Source: a virus
Taxonomy: Duplodnaviria > Heunggongvirae > Uroviricota > Caudoviricetes
DNA: 29,012 nt
IMG/VR virus record: IMGVR_UViG_2879731240_000003
Direction: 5' to 3' (one strand)
Both the position numbers and the translations under genes were made by a program. The notes beneath the pieces are model-generated. The model searched no databases, was not told the origin of the DNA, and saw only the letters and a program-made list of their open reading frames with translations. Shown here in pieces: positions 238 through 28,164 of the stretch. The stretch's first letter is position 1. Every line of letters starts with the position of its first letter.

Positions 238-846
238 TGAACCGGTAACTCACGATGAGAAACCCAACAATCCCACCGGGTGTGACGGTGGAGAACCTGA
301 GCGGCAGTGACCTGCGGCATGCCCGCAGGGTGATGTAACCCGCTGACAACGGGGATTGAGGCGAGATCACTAAGCCGAGATGATCCTCAAGGTTAAGTAC
401 TGAAAGGCTGAAGAACATGAACCCGTTAATCCGCCTCTGTGGGTTGAAAACGTCACCACGGCCTACGTGATCTGACAGGCCGTGCAGGAGGAACTGGCAG
501 TGATACGTAAGCACTGCCGGTCGAAGGTGTTTTGACATGTATGCGAAACACCGGGGCAGCAGCGTCTATCACACTTGCGTTGCTGACTTCTGCCAACTTG
601 CGGCAAGCAAGGATAAAGAGTGCGACGGGCAGCCTCCTCAGTATGCCTGAGTCCAGGCAGGTAAACCGGGGAAGGTCAGCGACGGATGTTAAGGGGGCAT
701 GGCTCCGATGACGCGCTGGCTGGCGGAGCTTCCGTAGTAGTCCGCGATGGGGAAAGCCCATTACATGGCGAAGGGAAGCAGTTTGAATGTGTTTGCGACG
801 TGAATTAACTGACCTAACGAGGTGAAGACCTTTGATAATCAGCGAA

Positions 847-2355
847 ATGCAACGCAAGCTTGCCACATGGGCAGCCACCGATCCGTCCCTACGGATTCAA
901 CGGCTGCTGCGTCTGATAACACAACCAGAATGGCTGGCTGAAGCGGCGCGGATCACGCTTTCATCAAAGGGGGCCCATACCCCCGGCGTTGATGGCGTGA
1001 ACAAAACAATGCTACAGGCCAGACTGGCTGTTGAGCTGCAAATCCTCAGGGATGAATTACTCTCAGGCCACTACCAGCCCTTGCCCGCCAGACGGGTTTA
1101 CATCCCTAAAAGCAACGGCAAACTGCGACCACTGGGTATCCCCGCGTTGCGGGATCGTATTGTTCAGCGGGCCATGCTGATGGCGATGGAGCCGATATGG
1201 GAGAGTGATTTTCATACGCTCTCATATGGCTTCCGGCCTGAGCGCAGTGTCCACCACGCGATCCGCACGGTGAAATTACAGCTCACAGACTGTGGTGAAA
1301 CCCGGGGACGCTGGGTGATTGAAGGCGACCTGTCCAGTTACTTCGACACCGTACATCATCGACTGCTGATGAAGGCTGTACGCCGCAGGATCAGTGACGC
1401 ACGTTTCATGACTCTGCTGTGGAAAACCATCAAGGCGGGACATATCGATGTCGGTCTCTTTCGGGCGGCCAGTGAAGGTGTGCCACAGGGCGGTGTTATA
1501 TCGCCGCTATTATCGAACATCATGCTGAATGAGTTCGATCAATACCTGCATGAGCGCTACCTGAGCGGGAAAGCCAGAAAAGATCGGTGGTACTGGAATA
1601 ACAGTATCCAACGGGGCCGAAGTACGGCGGTCAGAGAAAACTGGCAGTGGAAACCCGCGGTGGCGTACTGCCGCTATGCCGATGATTTTGTCCTCATCGT
1701 CAAAGGCACCAAAGCACAGGCGGAAGCCATCAGGGAGGAGTGTCGGGGTGTGCTCGAAGGCAGTCTGAAACTCAGGCTGAACATGGATAAGACTAAAATC
1801 ACCCATGTTAATGACGGCTTTATCTTTCTGGGGCACAGGATCATTCGCAAACGCAGTCGTTATGGCGAGATGCGAGTGGTCTCAACGATCCCGCAGGAGA
1901 AAGCCAGAAACTTCGCCGCATCGCTGACAGCACTGTTATCAGGCAACTACAGTGAAAGCAAAGTCGATATGGCTGAACAACTCAACCGAAAACTGAAAGG
2001 CTGGGCCATGTTCTATCAGTTCGTTGATTTTAAGGCCAAAGTCTTCAGTTATATCGACCGTGTCGTGTTCTGGAAGCTGGCTCACTGGCTGGCCCGCAAA
2101 TACCGTACAGGTATCGCTTCCCTGATGAGGTGGTGGTGTAAATCACCGAAACCGGGTCAGAGCAAAACGTGGGTTTTATTTGGTAAAACCAATCACGGCA
2201 AGCTCAGCGGCGAAATACTGTACCGGTTGGTGGGGCAAGGCAAGAAGCTGTTCCGCTGGCGGCTACCCGAAGGTAATCCCTATCTGAGGACGGAGACCAG
2301 AAACACGTATACATCGCGCTTTACAGAAGTGGCAATGGCGTTCGCCAGCATTTAA
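847..2355 (+). CDS. Group II intron-encoded protein (reverse transcriptase / maturase); no obvious C-terminal endonuclease domain
   Basis: RT motifs including PLGIP..DRIVQ, PQGGVISPLLSNIMLNEFD and YCRYADDFVLIV (YADD); maturase/X-like region after the RT. ORF track starts at TTG 832; first ATG is 847. Confidence 0.9.
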   Translation: MQRKLATWAATDPSLRIQRLLRLITQPEWLAEAARITLSSKGAHTPGVDGVNKTMLQARLAVELQILRDELLSGHYQPLPARRVYIPKSNGKLRPLGIPALRDRIVQRAMLMAMEPIWESDFHTLSYGFRPERSVHHAIRTVKLQLTDCGETRGRWVIEGDLSSYFDTVHHRLLMKAVRRRISDARFMTLLWKTIKAGHIDVGLFRAASEGVPQGGVISPLLSNIMLNEFDQYLHERYLSGKARKDRWYWNNSIQRGRSTAVRENWQWKPAVAYCRYADDFVLIVKGTKAQAEAIREECRGVLEGSLKLRLNMDKTKITHVNDGFIFLGHRIIRKRSRYGEMRVVSTIPQEKARNFAASLTALLSGNYSESKVDMAEQLNRKLKGWAMFYQFVDFKAKVFSYIDRVVFWKLAHWLARKYRTGIASLMRWWCKSPKPGQSKTWVLFGKTNHGKLSGEILYRLVGQGKKLFRWRLPEGNPYLRTETRNTYTSRFTEVAMAFASI

Positions 2356-2932: not shown

Positions 2933-3096
2933 GAAGGCTTTGGATTACCGTCTGGTGATACGTGAATATACTCTCTTCCAACCATCCAGCATTCTTTCCG
3001 GGTCCGAAGAATTGTGCCTGGTTTGAGCCCGGTAATTGCGATTAGAACGCTTTCACAAACCCATTCATTGGGAGCCAGTTGAATCACATTGCCCAT
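2933..3096 (-). pseudogene. Hypothetical small gene whose 3' end is cut by the IS911-like insertion
   Basis: Minus-strand ORF MGNVIQLAPNEWVCESV..HVSPDGNPKPS preceded by a GAGGT ribosome-binding site; the frame runs into the IS right end at 2932 and only terminates inside IS sequence. Confidence 0.35.
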
Positions 3097-3104
3097 GCAT
3101 TACC

Positions 3105-3251
3105 TCACACAACACTCAGCCCACGGCAGTGGCACCAGACCTCAAACATTCGTTTCACAATTTCACGACAGTAGAAACCGTCAACATCTCGCGTCAGGTC
3201 GTAGTGGTTGCCGTAACGCTGGTGGACCCATAGCTCAAACGCTTTATTCAT
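3105..3251 (-). CDS. Small Cys/His-containing protein (48 aa), possible zinc-binding prophage protein
   Basis: My own translation (below the ORF-track size cutoff): MNKAFELWVHQRYGNHYDLTRDVDGFYCREIVKRMFEVWCHCRGLSVV, preceded by AGGAAG ribosome-binding site; four Cys/His in the C-terminal half. Confidence 0.4.
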   Translation of the reverse strand: MNKAFELWVHQRYGNHYDLTRDVDGFYCREIVKRMFEVWCHCRGLSVV

Positions 3252-3254
3252 TTT

Positions 3255-3497
3255 TTACTTCCTTTGCATTGCGCGTAATTTCTTCAGGTGCTTTTCTTGT
3301 TCTGTTTCAGCCAGAATCTTGTGATATTCCAGGTGGTCAATATGCTCGAACAGGCTACTGAATTCACCGATGCGTACTCGCCCGGTACGTCCGTCCATCC
3401 TCCGAAAGAACACTGAGTGCTCAGTACTGCGAGTAATTTCTACTGGGTATCCGGCTCTGTCTGTGTATATCTGCCCGCGTTGAATCAAAGCGAACAT
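3255..3497 (-). CDS. Hypothetical prophage protein (about 80 aa; alternative upstream start gives 92 aa)
   Basis: ORF track 3255..3533(-); internal ATG at 3497 gives MFALIQRGQIYTDRAGYPVEI..KHLKKLRAMQRK. No family recognised. Confidence 0.4.
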   Translation of the reverse strand: MFALIQRGQIYTDRAGYPVEITRSTEHSVFFRRMDGRTGRVRIGEFSSLFEHIDHLEYHKILAETEQEKHLKKLRAMQRK

Positions 3498-3501
3498 GTG
3501 G

Positions 3502-3585
3502 TTATCCCCATCGACAAATCGAGTACACAACAAACGCTACTGCGAATACCATCCCCAGAGTTACGATTGCATCAGGCCAGCTCAT
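3502..3585 (-). CDS. Very small hydrophobic peptide (27 aa), possible membrane peptide
   Basis: My own translation: MSWPDAIVTLGMVFAVAFVVYSICRWG with strong upstream CAGGAGG ribosome-binding site; sits between the clamp-like gene and the 80-aa ORF. Confidence 0.25.
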   Translation of the reverse strand: MSWPDAIVTLGMVFAVAFVVYSICRWG

Positions 3586-3620
3586 TGATTCACCTCCTGC
3601 GGCGTCCTGGTATTCGATTT

Positions 3621-4190
3621 TCATTCCGGATGCTCCTGAGCCACGTTGAAATCGCCATGATCACGACAAGGCATCACAACAAATTCAGGATTGCCATACA
3701 TTGAGTTGATGATGGAATCAAACTGAATTCTGACCGCTTGCCCGTCACCGGAGGGACGTAACTGGACGGGAATAAATTTACGCTCACGACCAAACATCTT
3801 CTCTGGATAACTCAGGTAACCCGCCTGGAGCACCGGGTGAGTACAGCGGTCAAACTTTTTCGGAATGATGCGATCCAAATCCGGAAAACAACCGTCCACC
3901 AGTTTAATGCCGGTAATGGACAGTCGTCGCTGAAACTGGTCGCGATGAACAGCGATCGGCTCTTTACTAAAAATCAGCTCTGTCGTTTCGGCTTTGGCCG
4001 GGACGCCCCCTTCGAACTGGACAATGATGTTTTTCTTCGTCCGGATGCCGTGAGCCATGCGCAGTGCCACGGAACCATTGGTTGCCTCAATATGTTTCGG
4101 CGTGATGTGAAGACCGTTCAGGTAATAACGAACGTCGTTTTTAGCAGCGCACACCAGAGCGGCGCGAATAAGTTTTGACTGGATGATCAT
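3621..4190 (-). CDS. Truncated beta sliding clamp (DnaN)-like protein, 189 aa
   Basis: Motifs NDVRYYLNGLHI and KLVDGCFPDLDRIIPK resemble E. coli DnaN QDVRYYLNGMLF and KLVDGRFPDYRRVLPK; C-terminus ..EFVVMPCRD resembles DnaN ..AYVVMPMRL (remembered sequence). About half the length of a real clamp. Start ATG overlaps the upstream stop (ATGA). Confidence 0.6.
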   Translation of the reverse strand: MIIQSKLIRAALVCAAKNDVRYYLNGLHITPKHIEATNGSVALRMAHGIRTKKNIIVQFEGGVPAKAETTELIFSKEPIAVHRDQFQRRLSITGIKLVDGCFPDLDRIIPKKFDRCTHPVLQAGYLSYPEKMFGRERKFIPVQLRPSGDGQAVRIQFDSIINSMYGNPEFVVMPCRDHGDFNVAQEHPE

Positions 4191-4936
4191 GCTTTATCCT
4201 CCCATCCGATCACCTGGAAAAGCCCCATCTTCGGGTGATACCAGCGTGTGCCGCGTGGGTCAGCCTCTGACATCATTTGGTGGAACGCCGCCATAAATGG
4301 CTCAAGCTCGACGATAGCCCTGCGAGACAACAGACCGTCCGGAGTCATGAATTCGTGGGTGTCTGTAGGAATTTGATATGCGTTCACCAGATTCCGACAC
4401 TTGGTGTCACTCATTCCACTTTTGGCTACCACCTGGCGGTAACCGACATATCCGGCGCGCATATTTCCGCGTTTGATGGTTTCCACCGCTTCTGTGACTG
4501 TTTCGAGCTGTTCTTCCACATGATTCAGGCGCTTCTGTTGACGAACAGCGTCGGCGGCTATCGCAGCGATCATCTCGATTTCCGTTAGCGGTGTGCGAGT
4601 GCGGAAGTAGCTGTTAACCAGTTCGCGCTGAACCTGCCAGGCAAGGGCGTCATTGAATGGCTTCGTCAACATCAGGTAACCTGATTCAAAAAGTACAATC
4701 CCCGATGGTGCAAATTTAGAGAATGTTCCTTCCGGGAGGTCCGTACGTATTACGTCCGCACCTAATTCGGCATAATCCACACCGCTGATGAAATGCTCAC
4801 GGTTTCGGTTGAATGCTGCACGCGCGGTTCCTTCCGGTCGCTGGTGGACTTCATCAATCATCGCCAGCGTCACAACACGCTGACCGCGATATTCGATTAC
4901 CGGAAACTGTTTGTTGTTGATGGTTACAGTATTCAT
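4187..4936 (-). CDS. Phage antirepressor-like protein (Bro-N/ORF6N/KilA-N-type N-terminal domain, uncharacterised C-terminal domain)
   Basis: Likely start MNTVTINNKQFPVIEYRGQRVVTLAMIDEV.. at 4936 with GGAG ribosome-binding site; the N-terminal pattern resembles ORF6N/Bro-N antirepressor domains (from memory, moderate). Confidence 0.5.
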   Translation of the reverse strand: MNTVTINNKQFPVIEYRGQRVVTLAMIDEVHQRPEGTARAAFNRNREHFISGVDYAELGADVIRTDLPEGTFSKFAPSGIVLFESGYLMLTKPFNDALAWQVQRELVNSYFRTRTPLTEIEMIAAIAADAVRQQKRLNHVEEQLETVTEAVETIKRGNMRAGYVGYRQVVAKSGMSDTKCRNLVNAYQIPTDTHEFMTPDGLLSRRAIVELEPFMAAFHQMMSEADPRGTRWYHPKMGLFQVIGWEDKA

Positions 4937-4979
4937 TTTTATCTCCAGACAGCCCGGCGTGTAATACCGGGCATATGTA

Positions 4980-5807
4980 TTACTTAACCTGAATAAATGG
5001 TGTGTTGGCACCGCTGGTCATGTATTGCGGCAGTGTACCGTTCCACTTGTTGATGGCTTCCAGCTCCATAACGTTTGGGTTCTGGCGCAGAGCTTCACCG
5101 CGTAAACGAATAGCATCGGCTTCGGCCTGGGCTTTTGTGCGAATCGCATCTGCCTGTCCGGCAGCTTCCGCGCGCAACATGTTGGCTTCCGCTTCGCGCT
5201 GTTTTACTTCCTGCTCGCATTGCAGGGTTTTCTGGTTCGCCGTGACTTTGGCATTAATGCTGTCGATAACAGTAGGCGGGTACTCCGGCTTACCCACATA
5301 TGAGAGGCTCATTACCTGAATACCGATGGGCGTCATTTCTTCCTGAATGTCTTTAAGAGCTGCATCCAGCAGCTCAGACTTGCCGCCGTCGATAAATTTG
5401 TCGGTGGTCATTTTGCTGGCCAGTCGGTTGAGTGCGTCGGCTATCTTCTGGCGCAGGTCGGTGTCGGTAATGTCGTCCACGCCTTTGCGGTAGGTCTGAA
5501 AGACTGTGGTAACTTTGGATGGATCAACTTTGTAGGCCACGCCGATGTGATAGCCGATGGTTGTACCGTCACTCATCTGGAAGCTGAATGGCTCATCGTA
5601 GGTCTTCATTTGTTTGAAGGTCGGGAAGATGTAAACCTCAGTGTTCCATCCCGTCCAGTAGCGCCCAACACCGACCACTTCTCCGACGCCTTTATCGTCG
5701 CCCAGTTTGTTTACCTTGATGCCAACATTACCAGGCTCAACGCGATCGCAACCGACAAGTCCGGTGGTCAGCAGAACAAGGGCTAAAGCAGGAATAACTT
5801 TTTTCAT
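4980..5807 (-). CDS. SPFH/band-7 (prohibitin/HflC-like) domain lipoprotein
   Basis: N-terminal signal with lipobox (MKKVIPALALVLLTTGLVGC); SPFH core (..IGIQVMSLSYVGKPEYP..) followed by Ala/Glu-rich coiled region (QREAEANMLRAEAAGQADAIRTKAQAEADAIRLRGEA) typical of HflK/C and YqiK-like proteins. Confidence 0.8.
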   Translation of the reverse strand: MKKVIPALALVLLTTGLVGCDRVEPGNVGIKVNKLGDDKGVGEVVGVGRYWTGWNTEVYIFPTFKQMKTYDEPFSFQMSDGTTIGYHIGVAYKVDPSKVTTVFQTYRKGVDDITDTDLRQKIADALNRLASKMTTDKFIDGGKSELLDAALKDIQEEMTPIGIQVMSLSYVGKPEYPPTVIDSINAKVTANQKTLQCEQEVKQREAEANMLRAEAAGQADAIRTKAQAEADAIRLRGEALRQNPNVMELEAINKWNGTLPQYMTSGANTPFIQVK

Positions 5808-5992
5808 CTTTTATCCTTAGAAAAAGAAAGACCCTTATAAATGGCATAAATGCAGGGCGGGGTCAGACACGCCAGAGCAAAGCCAGAAATCACTGCTACC
5901 GTATCCTTCATTGATATGAGGGCCGGAACGATTAATCCGTAAATACATGCGATAATTGCCAGTGATATAACTATTCTGAAATAAATGTTCAT
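5804..5992 (-). CDS. Small two-helix membrane protein, translationally coupled to the SPFH gene
   Basis: MNIYFRIVISLAIIACIYGLIVPALISMKDTVAVISGFALACLTPPCIYAIYKG..; strong CAGGAGGA ribosome-binding site; 4-nt overlap with the SPFH start. Confidence 0.5.
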   Translation of the reverse strand: MNIYFRIVISLAIIACIYGLIVPALISMKDTVAVISGFALACLTPPCIYAIYKGLSFSKDKR

Positions 5993-6304
5993 GGTCCTCC
6001 TGATGTATTCGGCTTGCCTTATTTAATTGCGTCATGGTTAATTTCGTTTACGTCAGAATGGTTTTGTTGCCATCAGTTCGTAATATCCGGCGCTCCATGT
6101 GTCATATTTTCTGAACCATTTTTCTGTATACTGTTTCCTGGCGATGAGTCTGCGCAGTCGTCTGATTGTTCGCTGGTGTGCGCGGGTATACTCTGTGGTT
6201 GATTCTCCACGTTTCCATATCTCATTCCCGTTGAAGATAAAACGCTTGTCAGGATGGCGTTGTGAGGTGTACTGGCAATAGCGGACACTACCATTTGTTC
6301 TTTT

Positions 6305-7123
6305 TTAAGCAGCCATCTGATGATATTTTTCCCTGAAGGCTGCCGGGGAGATATTCCCCAGACGAGAGTGACGACGCTGACGATTGTAGAAAATCTCAAT
6401 GTATTCCCGTATTACTGAGATGGCTTCATCCCGGTTATTAAAACGATAGTGGCTCAGGCTCTCATTTTTCAGCGTTCCCCAGAAGCTTTCCATCGGAGCG
6501 TTGTCGTAACAGTTACCTTTACGCGACATTGATGTTTTCAGACCAGACTGCTCCTGTATGACCCGGTAATCGTATGCGCAGTACTGTGAACCTCGATCAG
6601 AGTGGTGGATTAGCCCGGCAGGTGGGCGCTGGCTCCTGAGCGCCATAAACAGGGCTTTACCTGTCAGCTCTTTTGTCATGCGCTCTCCCATGGCGTAGCC
6701 GACAATTTCACACGTATAAACATCTTTGATGCCAGCGAGGTACAACCATCCCTCCTGTGTGGCAACATACGTCAGGTCCGCCACCCAGACCTGATTTGGT
6801 GCTGTAGGAGCGAACGTCTGGTTCAGCAGATTTGGCGCAACTGGCAGATTGTGGTTCGGGTTCGTAGTCGCTCTGAACTTGCGTTTCTGCTTACAGCGTA
6901 GCCTCAGCTCCTTACGAAGACGTGCCAGTCGGTCACGACCAACGATGATGCCATTCTCTGCCAGCTCCGTCTGGAGCCGCCGGGTTCCATATGTTTCGCG
7001 AGTGCGGATATGTGCCACCTTAATCTCCAGTTTTAGCCGCTCATCACTTTGTTTTCTGTCTGAGGGTTCATGCTGTACCCAGTTGTAATAACCGCTCCTG
7101 GATACACCAAATACCTGACACAT
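6305..7123 (-). CDS. IS600-like transposase OrfB (integrase core); made as an OrfAB fusion by -1 frameshift, so the true N-terminus lies upstream
   Basis: ..NQVWVADLTYVATQEGWLYLAGIKDVYT..HHSDRGSQYCAYDY..KGNCYDNAPMESFWGTLKNE.. (IS3-family DDE signature). Confidence 0.85.
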   Translation of the reverse strand: MCQVFGVSRSGYYNWVQHEPSDRKQSDERLKLEIKVAHIRTRETYGTRRLQTELAENGIIVGRDRLARLRKELRLRCKQKRKFRATTNPNHNLPVAPNLLNQTFAPTAPNQVWVADLTYVATQEGWLYLAGIKDVYTCEIVGYAMGERMTKELTGKALFMALRSQRPPAGLIHHSDRGSQYCAYDYRVIQEQSGLKTSMSRKGNCYDNAPMESFWGTLKNESLSHYRFNNRDEAISVIREYIEIFYNRQRRHSRLGNISPAAFREKYHQMAA

Positions 7124-7158
7124 CGCTTCAATGGGAAATTGTTGTCGCCATTGTTCGA

Positions 7159-7461
7159 TTAACGCGTATTTTTCAGCGACTCCTGTGCAAAATACGCTGT
7201 TGCTTTTTTTAATATATCTCGCTCAAGGCGAGCTTCATTTAACGCCTTACGCAGTTGCAGAATTTCAGATTCCAGTTCAGCCACCGTGCGGGAACCAGGA
7301 GTACCGAGCCCTTTTCTGGCGGCGGTAACCCATTGTCCTAAAGTGCCTTCAGGAAGAGATAATCGGGAAGCGCCTTCACTGATCGAAAGTTGATTTTCAA
7401 GAACCGTTCTGACAGCTTCGGCTTTGAACTCTTTAGAGTAACGTTGGGTTTTTCTGCTCAT
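7159..7461 (-). CDS. IS600-like transposase OrfA (helix-turn-helix / leucine zipper)
   Basis: MSRKTQRYSKEFKAEAVRTVLENQLSISEGASRLSLPEGTLGQWV..LESEILQLRKALNEARLERDILKKATAYFA; slippery AAAAAAG near its 3' end. Confidence 0.85.
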   Translation of the reverse strand: MSRKTQRYSKEFKAEAVRTVLENQLSISEGASRLSLPEGTLGQWVTAARKGLGTPGSRTVAELESEILQLRKALNEARLERDILKKATAYFAQESLKNTR

Positions 7462-7527
7462 TATTAGCTCCTTCTGATGCCATTCTATTTCAGGAAGGAG
7501 TGTCCGTTAAACTCAGGCTACCTCAAT

Positions 7528-26412: not shown

Positions 26413-28164
26413 TTATGAATGGTGCAGTTGTGAGCCGTTTTCAGGCAATCGCAGGGCCAGTACCTCGTCAGTCAGCTGACGGTAAATCTGCTGTTCAGTC
26501 TCACGCATCACCTGTGCACCGGCTTCCCTCTCCGCATCCGCATCACCGCTCAGACCTGATGCTTTCAGCCGGTCAGCCACCCTCTGAGGGTACTCATTCT
26601 CCAGCATCTCATATTTCTGCTCTTCTGCCTGCGCCCAGCGGTCAGCTTCCGTACGCTTCAGTACAGCATGCCATGGTCCCCAGAGGGAGAACCAGTCCGT
26701 AAATTCATTCTCTTCACGGCTTCTGACCATGGCTTCGGCAGTGCGGAGGTCATTTGCTGTCACTCCCGACACGCCATAGAAACGCATTTCCTTCACGGCA
26801 GTGGAGAGCTGAAGTTTCTCTGCGAGCATGGTCTGGAAGGCCAGGTAGACTTCTATCTCATCCACAAAATGGAGAGTTCTGACTTTATCCCGGGCAATAT
26901 CCTCCAGAATTTCGAGGCGGAACATTTCCCTGCCCAGGGAGAGCAGAGCGCCGGTATCATTATCGAAAAGGCCTTCTGATGCCTGATGGACCAGGAGGGT
27001 TTTCCGGAGATTGTTCCATGTGAGCGCGACACGGTCCTCACAGCTCTCAGTGGCATCAGCAGCAACAGCGAAAGACTGCTGTCGAAGCTCCGCAGAGGCA
27101 CTGAGTTTTTCCAGCCATGCAGCGACCTGTTCACGGAATCCGGAGGTATTGCGTGCAGAGACGGTATCGGAAAGGCGGTCAAGGAACGCGGAAAAGGTGT
27201 TGGCGTGCTCTTCATGTTCAAAAGCATGCCATATCTGTGATACATCAGATTGTTTGTTTTCCGGGAACCATGCTGTCACGGCATCAGCCAGGGGGCGATG
27301 GAGTGTATTCTGTTGTCCGTCACTCATGGAGAAGTAAATCTGCGGGCCGTGGTAGTCCGGCGAAGATGTTAATCTTTGCAGGGATTGCAGAGCATGGGAT
27401 GACAATGGGTTATCACTAATATCTATTGAACATTCATTCCTCAGATTAAGAATGCTTTCCGGGATATGACTTATCTGATTTATGTCAAAATAACCGTTCC
27501 TTAAATTTTCCGGCAGGTATGGAATATCGGTTAACATATTGTCGATTGCCCATATGGAGTGAATGTTGTGAGGTAGAGGGGGGAGTTCACTAAGAAGATT
27601 CCCTATTGCGCTAATCTCTTGTAAAGAAAATGGTAAAGGTGGTAAAACTGCCAGCCCATTACATGATACATCTAATGTTTCCAGTAGTTCTGGTAAAACA
27701 GGAAGAGAACATAATTGATTATTTGAGACATGAAGCTCCTTCAAAGATATGGGGAGTGTGGGTAGTGTGATTAGTTGATTGTGGGACGCATTCAATAATT
27801 TAAGTCCTTGAGGCAAAGCAGGCAGTTCAATAAGTCTGTTATAGCTGACATTAAGTTGTGTAAGGGACGCAGGCAATGGGGAGATTAAGCTTAAATTATT
27901 TTTACTTATATTAATTGATTTAATTCCCGGGGGGATTTCAGGTAATGTTGTCAGGCCTAATTCAGACAAGTCCAGGTTCGTCTCTTGGTTTTGTAGACAT
28001 GATACTAGTCGCTGAAAAGCGATGTCTCGTTGTTCTTCTTGTATGCGGTTATTTTTCCATTCAGTCCAATGGGTTAGATAATTTTCATATGCGCGGCTAG
28101 TGTCGATTGAATAAGTGGAGAACGAATTTGAAATTAATCTGTGATTGTTATTTGTCGGGAGCAT
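26413..28164 (-). CDS. ipaH: IpaH-family type III secreted effector: N-terminal leucine-rich repeats plus C-terminal NEL-type E3 ubiquitin ligase domain
   Basis: 583 aa; N-terminus MLPTNNN..; about nine 20-residue LRRs (L..LP.LP..L..L.VS.N.L); C-terminal domain with the catalytic CEDR motif (..ADATESCEDRVALTWNNLRK..) matching Shigella IpaH proteins from memory. Confidence 0.95.
   Translation of the reverse strand: MLPTNNNHRLISNSFSTYSIDTSRAYENYLTHWTEWKNNRIQEEQRDIAFQRLVSCLQNQETNLDLSELGLTTLPEIPPGIKSINISKNNLSLISPLPASLTQLNVSYNRLIELPALPQGLKLLNASHNQLITLPTLPISLKELHVSNNQLCSLPVLPELLETLDVSCNGLAVLPPLPFSLQEISAIGNLLSELPPLPHNIHSIWAIDNMLTDIPYLPENLRNGYFDINQISHIPESILNLRNECSIDISDNPLSSHALQSLQRLTSSPDYHGPQIYFSMSDGQQNTLHRPLADAVTAWFPENKQSDVSQIWHAFEHEEHANTFSAFLDRLSDTVSARNTSGFREQVAAWLEKLSASAELRQQSFAVAADATESCEDRVALTWNNLRKTLLVHQASEGLFDNDTGALLSLGREMFRLEILEDIARDKVRTLHFVDEIEVYLAFQTMLAEKLQLSTAVKEMRFYGVSGVTANDLRTAEAMVRSREENEFTDWFSLWGPWHAVLKRTEADRWAQAEEQKYEMLENEYPQRVADRLKASGLSGDADAEREAGAQVMRETEQQIYRQLTDEVLALRLPENGSQLHHS
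27414..27996 (-). repeat. Tandem degenerate roughly 60-bp repeats encoding the IpaH leucine-rich repeats
   Basis: Periodic LRR units in the translation and a visibly AT-rich periodic DNA segment. Confidence 0.6.

Follow-up and report, generated by a model that had tools for sequence, protein, structure and literature searches.

The 29,012-nt stretch of viral DNA analyzed here, IMG/VR record IMGVR_UViG_2879731240_000003 (Caudoviricetes), carries a pair of overlapping genes, one for a 62-aa membrane protein with two hydrophobic helices, which we call the hairpin, and one for a 275-aa lipoprotein of the SPFH (Band 7) family. We refer to the whole stretch as the window. The main gain from the analysis is that the SPFH lipoprotein subfamily, in phages as well as in bacteria, comes with an almost obligate hairpin partner that is sometimes fused to it. 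The reading we prefer, which we hold tentatively and at just under an even chance, is that the two genes are a translationally coupled module that would build a periplasm-facing SPFH cage in the inner membrane, fenced by the hairpin and insulating or stabilizing the membrane of the infected cell.

Linkage, fusion and selection of the two genes

A hidden Markov model (HMM) built from 21 hairpin sequences was run against all 9,509 stop-to-stop open reading frames (ORFs) of 91 loci, i.e., 80 GTDB species representatives, phage loci and the window, with matches counted at E <0.03. It finds a hairpin in 81 of the 91 loci, every time on the strand of the SPFH gene and upstream of it, and gives zero matches elsewhere among the 9,509 ORFs. 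The ten loci without a match include one where the contig is too short, two with an upstream ORF that has two transmembrane (TM) segments, three where a two-TM N-terminus is fused to the SPFH protein, and one with a larger ORF of 3-4 TM segments; by inspection, a multi-TM partner is thus present in six of these ten. Where the two genes are separate (79 loci) they overlap in 26 pairs, 16 of them by ATGA as in the window, and are 0-30 nt apart in another 48, so that 74 of the 79 show either an overlap or a gap of at most 30 nt. Four unfused loci are more widely spaced, two of them owing to insertion of an insertion sequence (IS). The two proteins also diverge together, the pairwise divergence of hairpins and SPFH proteins being correlated with r = 0.84 (Mantel p = 0.001), and the partner is 55-78 aa long across the lipoprotein subfamily.

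An exhaustive HMMER search gave 3,074 representative clusters at E ≤1e-3, and fusions were sought among the best 150 of these. At least 18 of the 150 are hairpin-SPFH fusions, in ORFs of 320-390 aa, and five genome loci hold a single uninterrupted ORF of this kind. The order within the fusions is hairpin, basic linker, an internal signal-peptide-like segment with lipobox, and SPFH, and the hairpin motif P-x-[LM]-[IV]-S is found in 14 of the 18 by a coarse pattern. Their topology is self-consistent: the C-terminus of the hairpin and the N-terminus of the signal peptide are both placed in the cytoplasm, and once the fusion is inserted, LspA could cut at the retained lipobox and so release one half from the other. 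We regard these Rosetta-stone fusions as the strongest computational evidence, pointing to a hairpin and an SPFH protein that act together and in equal amounts.

All 80 close viral contigs keep both ORFs intact. The SPFH gene has a ratio of nonsynonymous to synonymous polymorphism (pN/pS) of 0.07 in these contigs, and the hairpin gene one of 0.35. The intact frames and low ratios together mark these as real genes under selection, far beyond what chance would give.

Fold, anchor and topology of the two proteins

The SPFH protein scores 108.2 bits (E 6.3e-31, residues 22-208) with the Pfam model Band_7 (PF01145), whose gathering cut-off is 23.6 bits, and matches PHROG 200 ('lipoprotein') with E 6.4e-114. 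Its N-terminus, MKKVIPALALVLLTTGLVG followed directly by the lipobox cysteine, begins with MKK and continues through a hydrophobic core to L-V-G and C20, with Asp at position +2. This satisfies the bacterial lipoprotein pattern of a charged N-region, a hydrophobic core and a lipobox [LVI][ASTVI][GAS]C; signal-peptide and TM assignments are throughout based on pattern, hydropathy and conservation. Cys20 is kept in 70 of 79 diverse homologues; in most of the nine that lack it, the N-terminus is a hydrophobic anchor that would stay uncleaved. The initial annotation of the window had proposed an SPFH/band-7 lipoprotein, and the domain match and the lipobox both bear this out. Asp at lipoprotein position +2 is the established inner-membrane retention rule in Enterobacteriaceae. 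Because of this residue, the relatives with an N-terminal anchor and the fusions to an inner-membrane hairpin, we infer lipidation at the cysteine and a destination on the periplasmic face of the inner membrane.

The AlphaFold2 (AF2) monomer model, built on a 79-sequence alignment (predicted local distance difference test, pLDDT, 86.7), has an SPFH1/2 core, a continuous helix spanning residues 178-242, a short helix at 244-254 and a low-confidence tail. The architecture of cage-forming SPFH proteins, an SPFH1/SPFH2 alpha/beta core and then a long coiled-coil helix, is thus present in the model. Foldseek aligns nearly the full chain to the cage subunits HflK, HflC, prohibitin (PHB1/2), erlin and stomatin with E from 2e-14 to 1e-11, the HflK match being 7vhq_E with E 2e-14; QmcA ranks 34th. 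By sequence, HflK is the sole PDB relative (E 3e-4), with similarity confined to the generic SPFH2 and coiled-coil regions. Three tail residues, W255, G257 and P260, are at least 90% conserved, and by analogy with the C-termini of HflK/C the K-W-[ND]-G-x-L-P tail is presumed to be an oligomer cap or ring-closure element. The fold and this conserved C-terminal motif suggest that the protein would assemble into a ring or cage on the membrane. In the window, Arg197 of the wall helix is replaced by Cys (codon 5217-5219); Arg is the majority residue at this position family-wide, and the replacement is lineage-specific, being common to only 1 of the 80 close viral contigs.

In phiP27 (L05) and in Stx2a phages the SPFH gene is labelled 'serine protease'. 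The label is unsupported, Band_7 being the only Pfam domain in the protein, and a weak match to a PHROG 'protease' family (E 7e-4) sits on the coiled coil; it is probably a legacy error.

The hairpin has hydrophobic segments at residues ~3-27 and 31-52 and a Lys/Arg-rich C-tail by hydropathy, and it matches PHROG 1130 ('membrane protein') with E 6.6e-24. AF2, run for this protein without an alignment, gives a helical hairpin (helices 3-25, 28-43 and 45-61, pLDDT 73.6). Across 33 relatives the N-tail holds on average 1.7 Lys and Arg residues, the loop 0.5 and the C-tail 3.2, which by the positive-inside rule argues for an N-in/C-in topology with the C-tail in the cytoplasm. In the family alignment Pro23 is invariant and Ser27 and Gly37 are near-invariant, and the motif P-x-[LM]-[IV]-S-x-x-[SD]-T lies at the periplasmic end of TM1. 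Homology of the hairpin is recognizable across phyla. It has no relative in Pfam, NCBIfam or the PDB, and the NfeD model (PF01957) matches 0 of 33 family members at E ≤1. An NfeD identity is thus rejected, the protein also being too short for an OB fold. The initial annotation had described a two-helix partner too small for NfeD, which agrees with the hydropathy and with the AF2 model, and had suggested a Pfam scan of the pair, in which Band_7 is strong and NfeD is absent from both proteins.

Distribution and genomic setting

With tblastn, the SPFH family is found in 491 of 50,697 phage records, and phage genome annotations have listed it since at least 2002-2006; the expectation that SPFH proteins would be unusual outside a chromosomal housekeeping role, as initially stated for the window, is therefore not borne out. 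The carriers include N4-like podoviruses, rV5-like and jumbo myoviruses, LUZ24-like Pseudomonas phages, BcepF1, phiCbK-like phages, a crAss-like phage, Lak phages and haloviruses, most of which we take, judging from the genera, to be virulent. Many phages hold the module among early or DNA-metabolism genes. The N4 homologues are gp19, a 68-aa membrane protein, and gp20, a lipoprotein, encoded by overlapping genes, and the same arrangement is seen for gp001/gp002 of BcepF1 and in a Pseudomonas prophage-like phage. The small hairpin gene is frequently missed in annotation: neither phiP27 (locus 3307-3492) nor the listed records of Stx2a/Stx2d-converting phages annotate it, and its SPFH neighbor is labelled there as a protease.

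The family is also carried by ~360 plasmids of the E. coli group, whose sizes and missing mobility genes fit P1-like and SSU5-like phage-plasmids. Specifically, in the P1-like phage-plasmid MH422554 a hairpin and SPFH pair (2967-4011) lies between dmt and ban, whereas reference P1 has plp, upl and tciABC at this position instead, and the different contents suggest a swap-prone accessory locus. The plp and upl genes of reference P1 are not this same pair, Plp (125 aa) and Upl (63 aa) being unrelated to it and without TM segments. For this reason the CRISPR interference result of 'non-essential' for plp/upl (PMC10695390) is inapplicable to the pair.

Two chromosomal settings stand apart from phages. 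In ~23 species of the Dyella group the module is flanked by an M56 BlaR1-like peptidase and by conserved uncharacterized proteins of 172 aa and 368 aa, and in four Leptospira species it adjoins sdhC. No phage genes are found at the Dyella or Leptospira loci, and their neighbor genes give no functional clue; the Dyella-group locus may be a larger envelope-related operon. Such stable non-phage loci point either to a cell-autonomous membrane function borrowed by phages or to transfer in the opposite direction.

An intact relative is found in E. coli E110019 (98% identity), in which the order is integrase, small ORFs, an ORF6N protein, SPFH, hairpin, several hypothetical genes and a CI-like repressor, all leftward; the layout in phiP27 is the same. 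This gene order places the pair in the early-left (xis-to-repressor) operon of a lambdoid prophage. On the coding strand, neither a sigma-70-like promoter nor a terminator was detected around the two genes, which argues that they are not a self-contained moron. The initial annotation had placed the pair in a prophage accessory region: the prophage stands, but the pair lies inside the early-left operon and not in a separate cargo unit.

In the window itself, homology to the E110019-type prophage extends over 3449-6263 and ends at an IS600 element, which truncates the gene upstream of the hairpin and stands in place of the entire immunity and replication region. Judging from this position, IS600 has severed the intact pair from its native early-left operon promoter, and in a decayed prophage such a break makes expression of the window's pair uncertain. 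Indeed, there is a considerable chance, if one below even, that the window's copy is a silent relic, i.e., two intact ORFs left untranscribed, which would be compatible with any functional reading of the family. In addition to the abrupt end of homology and the lost immunity and replication region, the group II intron and IS110-family transposase in the same element, the lack of any promoter-like site between IS600 and the pair, and the rarity of the Arg197 replacement fit this picture. In sister lineages the module is being inactivated in another way: the window's SPFH protein is 100% identical over the best-matching segment to the copies in Shigella flexneri SFBU1023 and E. coli ECMA0423, and in both of these strains an IS1-like fragment of ~770 bp interrupts the module precisely between the two genes (locus 1730-2500 in SFBU1023), where it alters the C-terminus of the hairpin and uncouples it from the SPFH gene. 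Against silence, however, the window retains both reading frames with their ATGA coupling and the ribosome-binding site unbroken, transcripts might read through IS600 or start outward from it, and the same IS-adjacent arrangement of the pair persists in several E. coli genomes.

To the right of IS600 follow RusA, Q, four tRNA genes, the IS110-family transposase, tail genes, Lom and an IpaH-type effector. Together with the IS600 break, this content (IS110, Lom, IpaH and the group II intron) argues for a decayed Shigella/enteroinvasive E. coli (EIEC)-type prophage. IpaH-type effectors are typical of Shigella/EIEC, and the prophage lysis and head modules are apparently missing in the window. On the other side of the pair, the mechanical ORF of the ORF6N (antirepressor-like) gene, 4187-5011 (-), begins at a GTG that overlaps the 3' end of the SPFH gene. 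The length of its RefSeq homologue, 249 aa, implies that the true start is an ATG near 4936. A 189-aa protein further along carries conflicting labels, and its match to DNA_pol3_beta_2 is only sub-threshold. The coordinates are collected in Table 1.

Table 1. Features of the gene pair and of the surrounding prophage, in window positions
Feature	Position	Strand	Basis or remark
Hairpin partner gene, 62 aa	5804..5992	-	ORF, hydropathy, charge, PHROG 1130, family alignment, AF2
Shine-Dalgarno AGGAGG, 5 nt 5' of hairpin ATG	5996..6001	-	Sequence read directly
ATGA overlap of hairpin stop and SPFH start codons	5804..5807	-	ORF coordinates; translational coupling
SPFH/Band 7 lipoprotein gene, 275 aa	4980..5807	-	Pfam, PHROG, AF2, Foldseek
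Predicted signal peptide (residues 1-19) and lipobox L-V-G-C	5748..5807	-	Pattern match, Cys conservation; Cys20 = 5748-5750, then Asp
SPFH1/SPFH2 core, residues 22-208	5184..5744	-	Pfam envelope; AF2 strands and helices
Continuous 65-residue helix, residues 178-242	5082..5276	-	AF2, Foldseek; equivalent to cage-wall coiled coil CC1 of HflK/C and prohibitin; contains R197C
C-terminal helix and tail, near-invariant K-W-[ND]-G-x-L-P (W255, G257, P260)	4983..5045	-	Conservation
Group II intron reverse transcriptase/maturase (RVT_1 + GIIM)	832-2355	+	Near integrase/excisionase end
189-aa protein	3621-4190	-	RefSeq relatives 'beta clamp domain-containing'; PHROG 3007 'RusA-like resolvase'; labels conflict
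IS600 (IS3 family)	6264-7527	-	orfA 7159-7461, orfB 6305-7123
Four tandem tRNA genes (Met-CAT, Arg-TCT, Thr-TGT, Gly-TCC)	8887-9196	+	Just 3' of Q antiterminator gene
IS110-family transposase (DEDD_Tnp_IS110 + Transposase_20)	9896-11092	-	Between Q/tRNA region and tail genes
IpaH-type type III effector, 583 aa (LRR_TTSS + NEL E3 ubiquitin ligase, E 6e-77)	26413-28164	-	Tail-fibre end of prophage

Function and relation to known systems

According to the reading we prefer, the SPFH lipoprotein would leave the cytoplasm and be tethered by a lipid on Cys20 to the periplasmic leaflet of the inner membrane, where the anchored subunits would oligomerize into a dome like that of HflK/C. In HflK/C the role of a palisade falls to the N-terminal TM helices of the subunits themselves, and in QmcA-YbbJ reportedly to those of the NfeD partner. 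A lipid-anchored subunit lacks such helices of its own, and the hairpin, presumably made 1:1 with the SPFH protein, would supply the transmembrane palisade in their place, with its P-x-L-I-S loop at the periplasmic interface beside the anchored SPFH1 domain. Such a complex would enclose a patch of the inner membrane. The phage would benefit from an inner membrane insulated or stabilized from the periplasmic side, so that superinfecting genomes could be blocked or premature envelope failure averted. This functional outcome is the one we favor, if weakly: exclusion or membrane stabilization is plausible in view of the expression among early genes in virulent phages, the predicted action at the face that incoming DNA must cross, and the neighboring genes annotated for exclusion. 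Specifically, a gene annotated for superinfection exclusion adjoins the SPFH gene in N4, and the same is true in PhiSH19 (PMC3220722).

Several points weigh against this proposal. The structural model is of a monomer, in which a cage cannot be seen, and the co-divergence and adjacency of the two genes would arise from simple co-inheritance too. Family-wide the +2 residue is frequently Ser or Thr, and under E. coli rules Ser/Thr at +2 sends a lipoprotein to the outer membrane. The 'superinfection exclusion' labels in N4 and PhiSH19 are annotations only, and strong conservation across phyla would be unusual among exclusion proteins, which typically evolve fast. The role of phage SPFH proteins was still called unclear in papers of 2020 and 2026 (PMC7760394, PMC13239085).

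The main alternative is that the SPFH protein modulates FtsH, as an HflK/C mimic or competitor that would cage the protease from the periplasmic side and stabilize phage proteins, by analogy with lambda cIII from the same operon. The closest characterized relatives, HflK/HflC and the prohibitins, are indeed protease-associated cages that face away from the cytoplasm, the predicted topology is on the same side as that of HflK/C, and the universality of FtsH fits the conservation across phyla. However, the identity to HflK/C is only 16-18% and restricted to the generic regions named above, nothing ties the module to ftsH in any locus examined, and virulent carriers have no lysogeny decision to bias. 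The scores with the NCBIfam equivalogs are far under the cut-offs, at 23.9 bits against 134.4 for hflC and 22.3 against 159.4 for hflK, so that the protein is not a member of either; with these scores and the prophage flanks, the worry that the pair might be a displaced copy of a host hflKC or qmcA locus is also laid to rest. We consider FtsH modulation unlikely.

Less likely still are the remaining possibilities. The initial annotation had suggested abortive infection or exclusion. Spelled out, this would be a defense expressed by the prophage to guard the lysogen, with the SPFH microdomain as sensor or effector and the hairpin as pore. This reading draws on the membrane location, on the superficial likeness of the hairpin to a small pore or holin, on the location in a lambdoid prophage region that often holds exclusion genes, and on the exclusion-annotated neighbors in N4 and PhiSH19. 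Abortive infection is disfavored because carriers are mostly virulent phages, which gain nothing from host suicide, because the module also occupies stable non-phage chromosomal loci, and because PADLOC-DB 2.0 gives 0 matches for the SPFH protein, the hairpin and the ORF6N neighbor at E ≤0.01. Moreover, with neither a promoter nor a terminator detected for it alone, the pair would be repressed with the early-left operon in a lysogen, and the proteins are strongly conserved rather than diversifying. We therefore judge a lysogen-guarding defense to be quite unlikely.

A part in lysis timing, with the hairpin as a holin or antiholin sequestered or regulated by the SPFH cage, is very unlikely. The hairpin does resemble a class II holin in having ~60 aa, two TM segments, an N-in/C-in topology and a charged C-tail, but only 1 of 33 members matches a holin family, with E 0.04, which is not a meaningful match. 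The pair is found in the early-left operon, far from a lysis cassette that is complete elsewhere in intact relatives, and the module also resides in non-phage chromosomal loci. Least probable of all is a lysogenic-conversion lipoprotein of the surface or of vesicles that would act as a virulence factor or TLR2 agonist in an animal host. In its favor, the prophage-encoded HflK/C-like Pmorf0222 of Pasteurella multocida, a possible homologue, was reported in outer-membrane vesicles, where it activated TLR1/2, and its loss attenuated virulence (PMC9872710); the window's prophage also bears an IpaH effector and Lom. However, lipoproteins in general activate TLR2, many virulent phages and many phages that infect plant and environmental bacteria carry the module, and export to the surface or outer membrane would not be expected with Asp at +2.

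Both gene families are already catalogued, and the window's copy is one more member. Our literature search found no functional study of phage SPFH lipoproteins, no mention of them in two phage transposon-sequencing preprints, and no paper on the small partner, on how consistently it is linked to the SPFH gene or on the fused forms. The pair is a defined two-component system, small enough for cryo-electron microscopy and for genetics in tractable phages (N4, lambdoid). If a cage with a palisade does form, it would be the simplest SPFH assembly known and a direct way to ask what membrane compartmentalization does for a virus. A bolder and rather doubtful proposal is that the hairpin and the SPFH lipoprotein represent an unrecognized class of periplasm-facing cage, in which an obligate, minimal two-helix partner replaces NfeD or the protein's own TM segment and which phages of many unrelated families use early to wall off part of the inner membrane, e.g., against competing phage DNA or pore-forming host defense effectors.

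The nearest counterparts of the window's pair are N4 gp19-gp20, BcepF1 gp001/gp002, and phiP27 L05 with the unannotated ORF upstream of it, all of which combine the same two families (PHROG 1130 and PHROG 200) in the same order and on the same strand. Like the window's genes they overlap or nearly abut, and they share the P-x-[LM]-[IV]-S motif of the hairpin and the lipobox and K-W-N-G-x-L-P tail of the SPFH protein, which is 63% identical to N4 gp20; the phage types and host ranges differ. The likeness to known exclusion factors is of another kind. T4 Imm and Sp, P22 SieA and T5 Llp are early-expressed small inner-membrane proteins or lipoproteins that act against incoming phage. The analogy is functional only, without any relationship in sequence or fold, and unlike the module these factors do not belong to the SPFH scaffolds; they typically evolve fast and act over a narrow range.

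Among solved proteins E. coli HflK/HflC is the best match in both fold and sequence, from SPFH1/2 through CC1 to CC2, and, as predicted for the SPFH lipoprotein, it stands on the inner membrane and faces the periplasm. The differences are that a predicted lipid anchor takes the place of the N-terminal TM helix, and that a single SPFH gene with a 62-aa hairpin as partner takes the place of a heteromeric pair: the neighbors of the SPFH gene are the hairpin gene and the ORF6N gene, so the arrangement of two paralogues is absent.

In the coupling of an SPFH gene to a small membrane partner the module resembles the SPFH-NfeD operons, such as E. coli QmcA-YbbJ (PDB 8z5g), Pyrococcus PH1511-PH1510 and FloA-NfeD. 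Tan and colleagues reportedly found in 2024 that the TM helices of YbbJ, an NfeD protein, bridge neighboring SPFH subunits in QmcA-YbbJ. The QmcA-YbbJ cage is described as one of 26 heterodimers (PMC13086221). In contrast to NfeD, the hairpin is without an OB fold and without an NfeD match in Pfam, and QmcA, unlike the SPFH lipoprotein, faces the cytoplasm and has a TM helix of its own. The module as a whole is best described as a variant of the theme of an SPFH protein with a membrane partner, one that would be periplasm-facing and lipid-anchored, with a minimal partner that has no OB fold.

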